Assembly (NCBI GenBank): GCA_025937755.1 | Contig: JAICQR010000001.1 | Span: 1,542-65,541, forward strand | Direction of reading: 5' to 3' | Origin: Gemmatimonadales bacterium | Lineage (GTDB): Bacteria; Gemmatimonadota; Gemmatimonadetes; Gemmatimonadales; GWC2-71-9 | DNA length: 64,000 bases | Shown here: positions 27,994 to 28,443 of the stretch, piece by piece | Numbering within the stretch: the first letter of the stretch is position 1 | Layout: each line of letters starts with the position of its first letter | Notes under the pieces: generated by a model | Seen by the model: the letters and a program-made list of their open reading frames with translations, nothing else | Told to the model about the DNA's origin: nothing | Database searches by the model: none | Translations under genes and position numbers: made by a program

Positions 27994-28443
27994 TCACCTC
28001 GATGAAATAGGGAAAGCGGGAAACAGCGCGTCAGGGGCTGCCGTGCCGCTCCACTTCTCGCGTCCCGCCACCAGCAGGCTCACGCGATAGCCTTTCCCCC
28101 GCGTCAACGCGCGGCCGCCCGCCGCAATGCCATCCACCATGACCCGGCCGGCGCGCAGCAGCGCCGCCTCGCCCGGGGTCGGCGTCCCGGTCAGGACCAG
28201 CCGCACCCGGTCAGGGTGATCAAGGCGGTATGCCACCCAGTCGGGCAACGTGGTACCGCAGCTGAAGCAGGCGGAGGGGTCGTACAGAAGGAGGACGGTG
28301 CTGTCGGACACGGCCAGGTCGGCCACGCGCCGGCCGTCGGCCAGCTCGAGCGTCGCCGCGTCGCGGCCGGCACAGGCCGCGACCAGCAGCAGCAGGGAGA
28401 GAGAGGAGCGGATCACGGGGGCACGATACGGTGGCGGAGTCAA
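27994..28443 (-). CDS. Thioredoxin-fold-like lipoprotein with CFSC (CxxC) motif
   Basis: Lipobox SLSLLLLVAACAG. VLLLYDPSACFSCGTTLPDW resembles the beta1-CxxC-alpha1 element of TlpA/redoxins. The start is either TTG 28443 or GTG 28416. Confidence 0.6.
   Translation of the reverse strand: MTPPPYRAPVIRSSLSLLLLVAACAGRDAATLELADGRRVADLAVSDSTVLLLYDPSACFSCGTTLPDWVAYRLDHPDRVRLVLTGTPTPGEAALLRAGRVMVDGIAAGGRALTRGKGYRVSLLVAGREKWSGTAAPDALFPAFPISSR

Follow-up and report, generated by a model that had tools for sequence, protein, structure and literature searches.

A predicted thioredoxin-fold CFSC lipoprotein as a putative dedicated thiol-disulfide oxidoreductase for cysteine-rich mini-proteins in a Gemmatimonadales bacterium

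What is the role of a small lipoprotein with a CFSC motif whose gene lies directly upstream of two cysteine-rich mini-protein genes? This question is raised by an open reading frame (ORF) at 27994-28443 (minus strand) in a 64,000-nucleotide stretch of contig JAICQR010000001.1 from a Gemmatimonadales bacterium; the whole stretch is called the window here. The protein founds a sequence-orphan family with a predicted thioredoxin fold. With slightly better than even confidence, it is read as a putative periplasmic thiol-disulfide oxidoreductase dedicated to the mini-proteins.

The ORF encodes 149 aa from TTG 28443 and 140 aa from GTG 28416. An earlier interpretation made from the letters of the window, i.e., the sequence-only reading, had given 140-149 aa, and this range covers both start candidates. 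The GTG is most likely the true start, because the homologues begin at the V10 column (residues are numbered from the TTG) and the TTG falls in a conserved non-coding motif. A length of 140-148 aa, with the first residue at that column, is seen in ten of the 12 close homologues, and the motif, TTGA-N7-GTTGA, is kept 5' of the gene at five loci. TTG 28443 was ruled out as the start codon on account of this motif. The G+C content at third codon positions is 0.83 for the ORF, which is in line with the coding frames selected in the 66% GC window. The N-terminus of the protein, MTPPPYRAPVIRSSLSLLLLVAAC, ends its predicted signal peptide with the lipobox V21-A22-A23-C24 (28372-28383). The lipobox LLLLVAAC24 had been named in the sequence-only reading, and it agrees with the pattern [LVI][ASTVI][GAS]C of bacterial lipoproteins. 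By this predicted lipid anchor, the CFSC protein is a membrane-anchored lipoprotein. The CFSC motif, also named before, was recovered at C59-F-S-C62 (28258-28269, minus strand; TGC TTC AGC TGC) within residues 50-69, VLLLYDPSACFSCGTTLPDW, and represents a putative redox-active dithiol.

The conservation of the two cysteines was examined in relatives of the protein. A word-indexed protein search gave the 12 close relatives, and the same 12 when it was repeated with the 150-sequence profile. In these, CFxC was invariant wherever the site was covered, and both cysteines were kept in 11 of 11 homologues covering it. The alignment of close homologues was used to search 1.84 billion cluster representatives (50% identity) in full with HMMER. 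At E<=1e-3 the family had 469 representatives, of which 147 also passed E<=1e-10; most were 140-190 aa long. Conservation was counted in 160 aligned members. The second cysteine, C62, was kept by 160/160 and C59, the first, by 150/160, and the ten exceptions carried V, A, S or T in place of C59. P56, W69 and P88 were each found in more than 150 members, and R100 in 143. Pro67 is placed at +8 from C59, a spacing which we take to match that of Trx P40 and ResA. The family is nearly always lipoprotein, i.e., C24 of the lipobox was conserved in at least 90% of the 150 members counted. The subfamily of the window protein was found in metagenome-assembled genomes of Gemmatimonadales (four Gemmatimonadales loci in a genome profile scan). 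The wider family has so far come only from unclassified metagenomes, and a metagenome profile scan gave five loci. Natural single-cysteine members (V/T/S/A-x-x-C) keeping the C-terminal cysteine were also recorded, i.e., P0028, P0033, P0051, P0066, P0075, P0086, P0133, P0142 and P0156.

The structure was predicted by AlphaFold (AF2). The quality of the model depended on alignment depth: 13 sequences gave an unusable model with a predicted local distance difference test (pLDDT) score of 54.8, and 150 sequences gave a pLDDT of 91.2 and a predicted template modelling (pTM) score of 0.80. In the latter model, short N-terminal strands (at 33 and 39) are followed by strand 48-54, the CxxC loop 59-62, helix 66-75, strand 80-84 and helix 90-98. 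A short strand, helix 108-114, the hairpin 119-125/128-133 and helix 137-140 complete the chain, and the C-terminal helix is truncated. The central beta-sheet has the thioredoxin order, with beta-alpha-beta and beta-beta-alpha units, and the N-terminal hairpin and the helix inserted after beta5 (108-114) of TlpA-type proteins are present. In Foldseek, 28 PDB structures matched at E<=1e-3 with probability 1.00, and 28 of 28 were extracytoplasmic thioredoxin-like oxidoreductases or their close homologues. They included StoA 3erw (1.1e-4), FetE 8t4c, ResA 1su9/3c73, TlpA 1jfu/4txo and the putative DsbE 3gl3, while AhpC, AhpE and other peroxiredoxin structures ranked after the TlpA-like matches. 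By this model, the lipoprotein is a thioredoxin fold of TlpA/ResA/StoA architecture. In this architecture, an N-terminal hairpin precedes a beta-alpha-beta-alpha-beta core, after which come a short inserted helix, a beta-hairpin and a last helix. The thioredoxin likeness noticed in the sequence-only reading is borne out by the model. That reading had named a different fold, or cysteines not conserved in homologues, as the results that would speak against it; both were checked and neither was found.

At the sequence level, the window protein gave no Pfam match at E<=1 and no NCBIfam match. The sequence-only reading had also proposed a search against redoxin, AhpC-TSA, TlpA and MauD models, and this search left the window protein without a match. 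The TlpA-like, Redoxin and AhpC-TSA hidden Markov models (HMMs; PF08534, PF00578 and PF13905) did not reach their gathering thresholds on it, and Thioredoxin_8 was not matched. Faint matches were seen among 150 relatives, i.e., AhpC-TSA in two (best 0.02), TrxC in two (0.0088) and MauD in one (0.034). A PDB sequence search with the 13-sequence profile returned nothing. With the 150-sequence profile, four thioredoxin structures were reached below threshold (E 0.3-1.9) over the beta3-beta4-alpha region. The earlier statement that no family could be named was thus right, as the thresholds of the Pfam and NCBIfam models were reached neither by the protein nor by any of the 150 relatives.

Membership in known groups was tried and rejected. 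The peroxiredoxins were rejected because PxxxT/SxxC is missing, the motif is P-x-x-C-x-x-C with the first cysteine in 150 of 160 members, and no Arg is conserved at the cis-Pro site (column 120 is unconserved, i.e., R34, S26, A25 and V16 of 160). DsbA does not fit a mature protein of about 125 aa without the helical insertion; no Pfam DSBA match was obtained, and no DsbA was among the 50 Foldseek matches listed. Sco/SenC was rejected on the spacing, CxxC and not CxxxC, and on the lack of a conserved His column, the best being H76 at 38/160. MauD (TIGR02661) was rejected since no NCBIfam match was found, and no mau genes occur in the window or the loci. The JGI name of member P0009, "predicted Fe-S protein YdhL (DUF1289 family)", was not accepted, as one weak DUF1289 match (E 0.033) was found in 150 members; it is probably a mis-annotation driven by the CxxC.

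The genes that follow the CFSC lipoprotein encode its proposed substrates. Mini-protein B (27786-27989, minus strand) has 67 aa with a Sec signal peptide and a mature pattern W-R-D..G-K-C-x3-C-x5-C-C-P-C, i.e., five cysteines. Mini-protein A (27567-27755, minus strand) has 62 aa, a Sec signal peptide and the mature pattern W-R-D-A-C-G-G-C-x3-C-x6-C-P-C, also with five. As stated in the sequence-only reading, the stop of the lipoprotein gene (TGA 27994-27996) lies 4 nt (27990-27993) from the ATG of mini-protein B (27987-27989), and its Shine-Dalgarno sequence, GAGG at 27997-28000, is inside the last codons of the lipoprotein gene, TCG AGG TGA. The CxxC gene and the mini-proteins are probably translationally coupled. 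In an alignment of 17 mini-protein sequences, C41, C52 and C54 were invariant and C45 was at least 90% conserved. These four cysteines are the only conserved feature of the mini-proteins, of which the mature parts are 35-45 residues. Neither a Pfam scan nor a PDB profile search found a relative.

Synteny was compared at 16 independent loci with downstream sequence, at 29-93% identity to the window protein (the window, L001, L002, L007, L009, L010, L011, L012, L013, L016, L017, L018, L019, L020, L021 and L022). At 16 of 16, one or two mini-protein ORFs of 56-75 aa come after the CxxC gene, each with a Sec signal peptide and G-x-C-x3-C-x4-7-C-[P/R]-C. The gap between the CxxC gene and the mini-protein ranges from a short overlap to 36 nt. 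An NHL propeller lipoprotein comes next in every locus long enough to reveal one. In the window, this is a six-bladed NHL/DUF5128 propeller lipoprotein at 26476-27570 (minus strand; Pfam DUF5128 4.8e-6, TRIM-NHL structures 3.9e-19). Its GTG start, taken from the reading frame and the L002 gene call, overlaps the stop of mini A (GTGA). A fourth recurrent member is the lipoprotein of about 130 aa at 26082-26474 (minus strand), which has one invariant Cys in the alignment with its counterparts in L002, L007 and L018 and no Pfam or NCBIfam match. Its counterparts were located at 11918-12310 in L002, 3521-4024 in L007 and 2234-2716 in L018; they have 130-167 aa and a conserved G-R-V.

A fifth cysteine is carried by both mini-proteins in the window (27567-27989), L002 (10428-10849) and L020 (3428-3855), and both have four cysteines in the sister clades L001, L009, L011 and L021. 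The position is paralogue-specific, i.e., "CCPC" in the first in gene order and "RDxC.GC" in the second. The gain in both together suggests, from the sequence patterns, that mini-proteins A and B act as a pair and are covalently linked in the window clade.

A role in making or correcting mini-protein disulfides is inferred because a thioredoxin fold with a conserved Cys pair stands at a constant place before Cys-rich mini-proteins and a propeller; an oxidoreductase specific for these clients would be the simplest account. The CxxC lipoprotein, one or two Sec-exported mini-proteins and the NHL propeller lipoprotein, often with the one-Cys protein of about 130-167 aa, would form a fixed operon module. 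Mini-proteins emerging from the Sec channel would exchange disulfides with the membrane-tethered CxxC protein through the invariant C62, usually with C59. In this way two specific disulfides could be installed or proof-read, probably C1-C3 and C2-C4, which is the pairing of a CxxxC...CxC cystine-stabilised helix. Since two specific pairings out of three possible are needed, a dedicated catalyst or proof-reader makes sense. The enzyme may also form the propeller disulfide and, in the window clade, an inter-peptide A-B bond via the fifth Cys. Its direction would be that of an oxidase or isomerase rather than a reductase. The observation of the sequence-only reading is confirmed and its interpretation supported. 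The dedicated thiol-disulfide role that it proposed has gained synteny with mini-proteins at every locus examined, down to 29% identity, and the role itself stays at the level of a proposal.

Several points speak against this reading of the lipoprotein. The fold assignment depends on a predicted model, because a sequence-level link to thioredoxin-like families was lacking: none of the 150 relatives exceeded a Pfam or NCBIfam threshold, and hhalign was non-significant against the ResA single sequence (E=0.43) and against an 18-sequence profile of ResA orthologues (E=0.16, probability 0.4%). Foldseek TM-scores were only 0.45-0.55, the query-normalised value including the 25-residue signal peptide. 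The CFSC at 59-62 is between strand 48-54 and helix 66-75, and the helix starts at residue 66 by DSSP, not at C59. In the window subfamily the cis-Pro is missing; its place is taken by Y119 in the window protein and by Y, S, A or M in 12 of 12 close homologues. The identity of the substrates was taken from the gene neighbourhood alone, and the oxidase or isomerase direction is uncertain because most of the structurally closest proteins (ResA, CcmG, TlpA and StoA) are reductants. No DsbB, VKOR, CcdA or DsbD was detected among the window genes scanned. The covariation of the fifth Cys represents one clade and one evolutionary event.

The alignment to thioredoxins was also considered for the active site. 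The hhalign comparison with the E. coli Trx single sequence was non-significant as well (E 0.0068, probability 5.6%). Both ResA alignments, though non-significant, match CFSC with CEPC and bring the family Pro to the position of the cis-Pro of ResA. The column in question is that of residue 119 (28087-28089, minus strand), identified in the 160-member alignment in register with ResA. Pro occupies it in 115 of 160 members, usually with Thr before and a hydrophobic strand after, and this T-P is, as a sequence pattern, the signature of the thioredoxin cis-Pro loop. In canonical thioredoxin-fold oxidoreductases, the cis-Pro shapes the substrate groove.

The features of this active site bear on two further explanations. 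In the first, dithiol oxidoreductase chemistry is dropped in favour of a one-Cys enzyme, peroxiredoxin-like or sulfenate-based, or of a metal- or Fe-S-binding thioredoxin-fold protein enabled by the loss of the cis-Pro. The invariant second Cys corresponds to the peroxidatic Cys of peroxiredoxins, the first is V, A, S or T in 10 of 160 members, and peroxiredoxin structures follow the TlpA-like ones in Foldseek. A conserved cis-Pro is reported to prevent metal binding by the thiolates of the thioredoxin family, and it was lost in the window subfamily. However, both cysteines are kept in 94% of members, and no conserved Arg at the cis-Pro position, PxxxTxxC spacing or conserved His was found. 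The enzymes without the first Cys (VFTC in L017 and TFSC in L018) still precede mini-proteins with 4 or 6 cysteines, and the Fe-S name of P0009 (YdhL) is unsupported by Pfam. This explanation is considered very improbable. A structural likeness only, i.e., a non-catalytic scaffold, chaperone, immunity or anchor protein for the mini-proteins, is the least probable of all. The absence of sequence homology to catalytic families, the truncated C-terminal helix and the missing cis-Pro would agree with it, but it is difficult to see, without chemistry, why a Cys should stay invariant over 160 sequences of 25-35% identity exactly where thioredoxins have their active site.

The main rival concerns the direction of the reaction. 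Like CcmG, ResA or TlpA, the lipoprotein might be a dedicated reductant that is supplied by a CcdA or DsbD encoded elsewhere and keeps the mini-protein cysteines reduced in the oxidising periplasm. The mini-proteins could then take up a metal (Cu, Zn or Fe), a cofactor or a cross-link, perhaps on the NHL propeller or together with it. In favour of this rival, the structures closest to the model belong to reductants that act on specific clients, i.e., ResA, StoA, TlpA in complex with ScoI/CoxB, and the putative DsbE. Four close cysteines including a CPC are typical of metal sites, and the evidence of fold, conservation and synteny serves this rival equally. Against it, no CcdA or DsbD gene occurs in the window or the retrieved loci, and the conserved module has neither a maturation enzyme (radical SAM, MauG-like or flavoprotein) nor a metal transporter. 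A disulfide accounts more readily than a metal site for an odd fifth Cys gained in both peptides. For the CX3C...CXC spacing, a solution with two disulfides is well known (PMC5234102). We regard the reductant as unlikely, although more probable than any other rival.

The two-disulfide solution comes from cysteine-stabilised helix peptides, in which the CX3C...CX1C framework staples a helix to a strand by two disulfides (PMC5234102). The framework is shared by the mini-proteins with defensins and scorpion toxins of the cysteine-stabilised alpha-beta (CS-alpha-beta) type (PMC5234102). The likeness is in the spacing alone, and the loop from CX3C to CXC has just 4-7 residues in the mini-proteins.

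The propellers could be the clients in place of the mini-proteins. The CxxC protein would then serve the propellers or general envelope folding, and the adjacency of the mini-proteins would reflect shared regulation, e.g., by the divergent extracytoplasmic function (ECF) sigma factor described below. Propellers directly after mini-proteins, i.e., 26476-27570 in the window, have two conserved cysteines, "ACVD" and a C-terminal "C.W", and the fourth module protein has its invariant Cys. A precedent exists in DsbL/DsbI and the propeller enzyme arylsulfate sulfotransferase. However, the mini-protein gene always stands between the CxxC gene and that of the propeller, immediately following the former. 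The propeller-like protein upstream has no Cys, and no other product of the module comes near the Cys density of the mini-proteins. Such a role is judged improbable, and less probable than that of a reductant.

How does the proposed dedicated oxidoreductase compare with known systems? ResA, StoA, TlpA, CcmG (DsbE) and FetE (Pfam AhpC-TSA, Redoxin and Thioredoxin_8) are its best Foldseek matches (E 1e-4 to 1e-3). They share with it the element order including the inserted helix, a CxxC after the first core strand, a membrane tether on the outer face and a similar size, and each TlpA-like protein acts on few clients. Neither HMM searches nor profile-profile comparison connected them with the window family, of which the CxxC dipeptide is F/L-S/T/A. 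The dipeptides of ResA, TlpA and CcmG contain proline. In the window family the second Cys is invariant, whereas in classical thioredoxins the N-terminal Cys is the nucleophile. The anchor is a lipid in the window protein and a transmembrane helix in TlpA-like proteins, and most of the known TlpA-like members act as reductants on cytochrome c, Cu centres or spore cortex and not on peptides.

Another system to compare is MauD, a thioredoxin-like protein whose gene accompanies those of a small Cys-rich subunit and a beta-propeller subunit and which is needed for maturation of the small subunit. The comparison with MauD made in the sequence-only reading stands as logic and fails as membership, in TIGR02661 as in mau context. 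The module of the window has no mauE, mauG or cytochrome genes. Its propeller is a six-bladed NHL one, in contrast to the seven-bladed heavy chain of methylamine dehydrogenase, and its mini-proteins have 4-5 cysteines in 35-45 residues, whereas MauA has 12 in about 130 residues.

PedC, BlpG and BdbA are thioredoxin-like CxxC proteins encoded beside disulfide-containing bacteriocins (PMC4919988). In these systems (pediocin PA-1, thermophilin and sublancin 168), the CxxC protein, secreted or anchored, is encoded beside a small exported two-disulfide peptide and is required for its right pairing (PMC4919988). BlpG serves a multi-peptide bacteriocin, which parallels the pair of mini A and mini B. 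However, these systems belong to Firmicutes and use leader peptides and ABC exporters, whereas the window module is that of a diderm with Sec signal peptides. The module has no exporter or immunity gene, always includes the NHL propeller and shows no sequence relation to bacteriocin operons. A parallel for the single-Cys members is SdbA of Streptococcus gordonii, an AhpC/TSA-type disulfide oxidase for which one Cys of its CXXC is sufficient; a title cited in the source names the C-terminal one (PMC12453122). This resembles the pattern in the family, where C62 is kept in all members and C59 in most. Unlike the window protein, SdbA is a general oxidase of a Gram-positive bacterium, is recognized by Pfam and is not bound to one peptide operon. 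The logic of the window protein matches PedC, BdbA, SdbA and MauD, and it belongs to none of those families. Client-specific extracytoplasmic thiol-disulfide oxidoreductases are well known as a kind; this family, its active-site variants and the partnership of CX3C...CPC mini-proteins with an NHL propeller appear undescribed. A literature search on DUF5128, NVEALA, BF3164, or cysteine-rich or thioredoxin-like proteins of Gemmatimonadetes found nothing relevant.

A wider and more speculative proposal can be added, which we hold as possible but rather doubtful. The lipoprotein could be one arm of an undescribed envelope system, i.e., a family-specific thioredoxin-fold enzyme driven mainly by its C-terminal Cys and, in this subfamily, lacking the cis-Pro. 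It would mature one or two CX3C...CPC mini-proteins, perhaps covalently paired in the window clade, which act with NHL propellers as ligands, inhibitors, small subunits or defensin-like effectors under the divergent ECF sigma/anti-sigma pair. If this is true, C-terminal-Cys catalysis without a cis-Pro would be an unusual solution for a thioredoxin-fold protein.

The family has meaning for annotation, as a sizeable thioredoxin-fold family, currently "hypothetical", is invisible to Pfam, NCBIfam and PDB sequence searches. As its set of partners is fixed, it would offer an exceptionally clear example of a client-specific periplasmic disulfide enzyme, and this in a phylum that has been little studied. 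The variants, i.e., an invariant second Cys, a dispensable first one and the loss of the cis-Pro, raise the question of how far a thioredoxin-fold active site can shrink, and a second question is the role of the many DUF5128/NHL propeller lipoproteins. The interest lies in a clear, testable annotation gain and in the function of the whole module, and the mechanism would bring no surprise.

The spacer upstream of the CxxC gene (28417-28486, minus strand) was compared by alignment of upstream regions. Its motif in full is TTGA-N7-GTTGA(C)-N9-TA(K)C(R)T, found in the window, L001, L002, L020 and L021, and this full motif ends 5-7 nt ahead of the start codon. From its conservation and place, it may be an internal promoter or operator. 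In the window, 3.7 tandem copies of a GGGAAGT heptamer (gene strand) stand 5' of the motif at 28461-28486, and tandem heptamers also occur in L020. L002 has repeated GGGAAC-containing units instead, which resemble the ECF -35 "GGAAC". No terminator-like sites were found between 25900 and 30100.

Directly upstream of the spacer, a Cys-free exported protein of 388 aa (28489-29655, minus strand) is encoded, which is syntenic in Gemmatimonadales loci. It is propeller-like without a Pfam match and may be a fifth propeller. Downstream of the fourth module protein, three more paralogous NHL/DUF5128 propeller lipoproteins were recognized by Pfam and PDB search at 24843-26078, 23654-24928 and 22425-23597 (all minus strand). 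In PDB searches, the propellers were similar to TRIM-type NHL domains (3.9e-19) and, weakly, to peptidyl-alpha-hydroxyglycine lyase (2.5e-3).

On the plus strand, an ECF sigma factor (30024-30560), a putative anti-sigma factor (30557-31198) and a HEAT/TPR protein (31198-32661) are divergent from the module and syntenic with it in Gemmatimonadales loci. This set may regulate the module. The region 30024-33026 holds the sigma and anti-sigma genes and two HEAT/TPR proteins, and the same arrangement was seen in L001, L002, L009, L020 and L021. Next to the sigma/HEAT genes, an S8 subtilase is encoded at 33141-34751 (minus strand), and one is also placed beside the cluster in L002-L005. It could process exported peptides, and it is outside the conserved core.

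Downstream of the propeller array, genes of a resistance-nodulation-division (RND) efflux system occupy 15016-22289 (minus strand), i.e., a membrane-fusion protein (21174-22289) and pumps of ACR_tran size with 1034 and 1005 aa. The RND system is also in L002, not in L001. Two multicopper oxidases were found in the window at 45001-46908 and 52708-54105 (both minus strand). The former is flanked by an unusually long SdhA/FrdA-like flavoprotein of 850 aa (46913-49465) and an SdhB-like Fe-S protein (44241-44999). Elsewhere in the window (1434-7459, 8537-12237 and 41286-43721, all minus strand), there are two GMC oxidoreductases, with a gluconate 2-dehydrogenase subunit-3 gene beside one of them. 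The same regions encode two xylose-isomerase-like TIM barrels, two adjacent M14 carboxypeptidases and a Ser/Thr kinase-TPR fusion.

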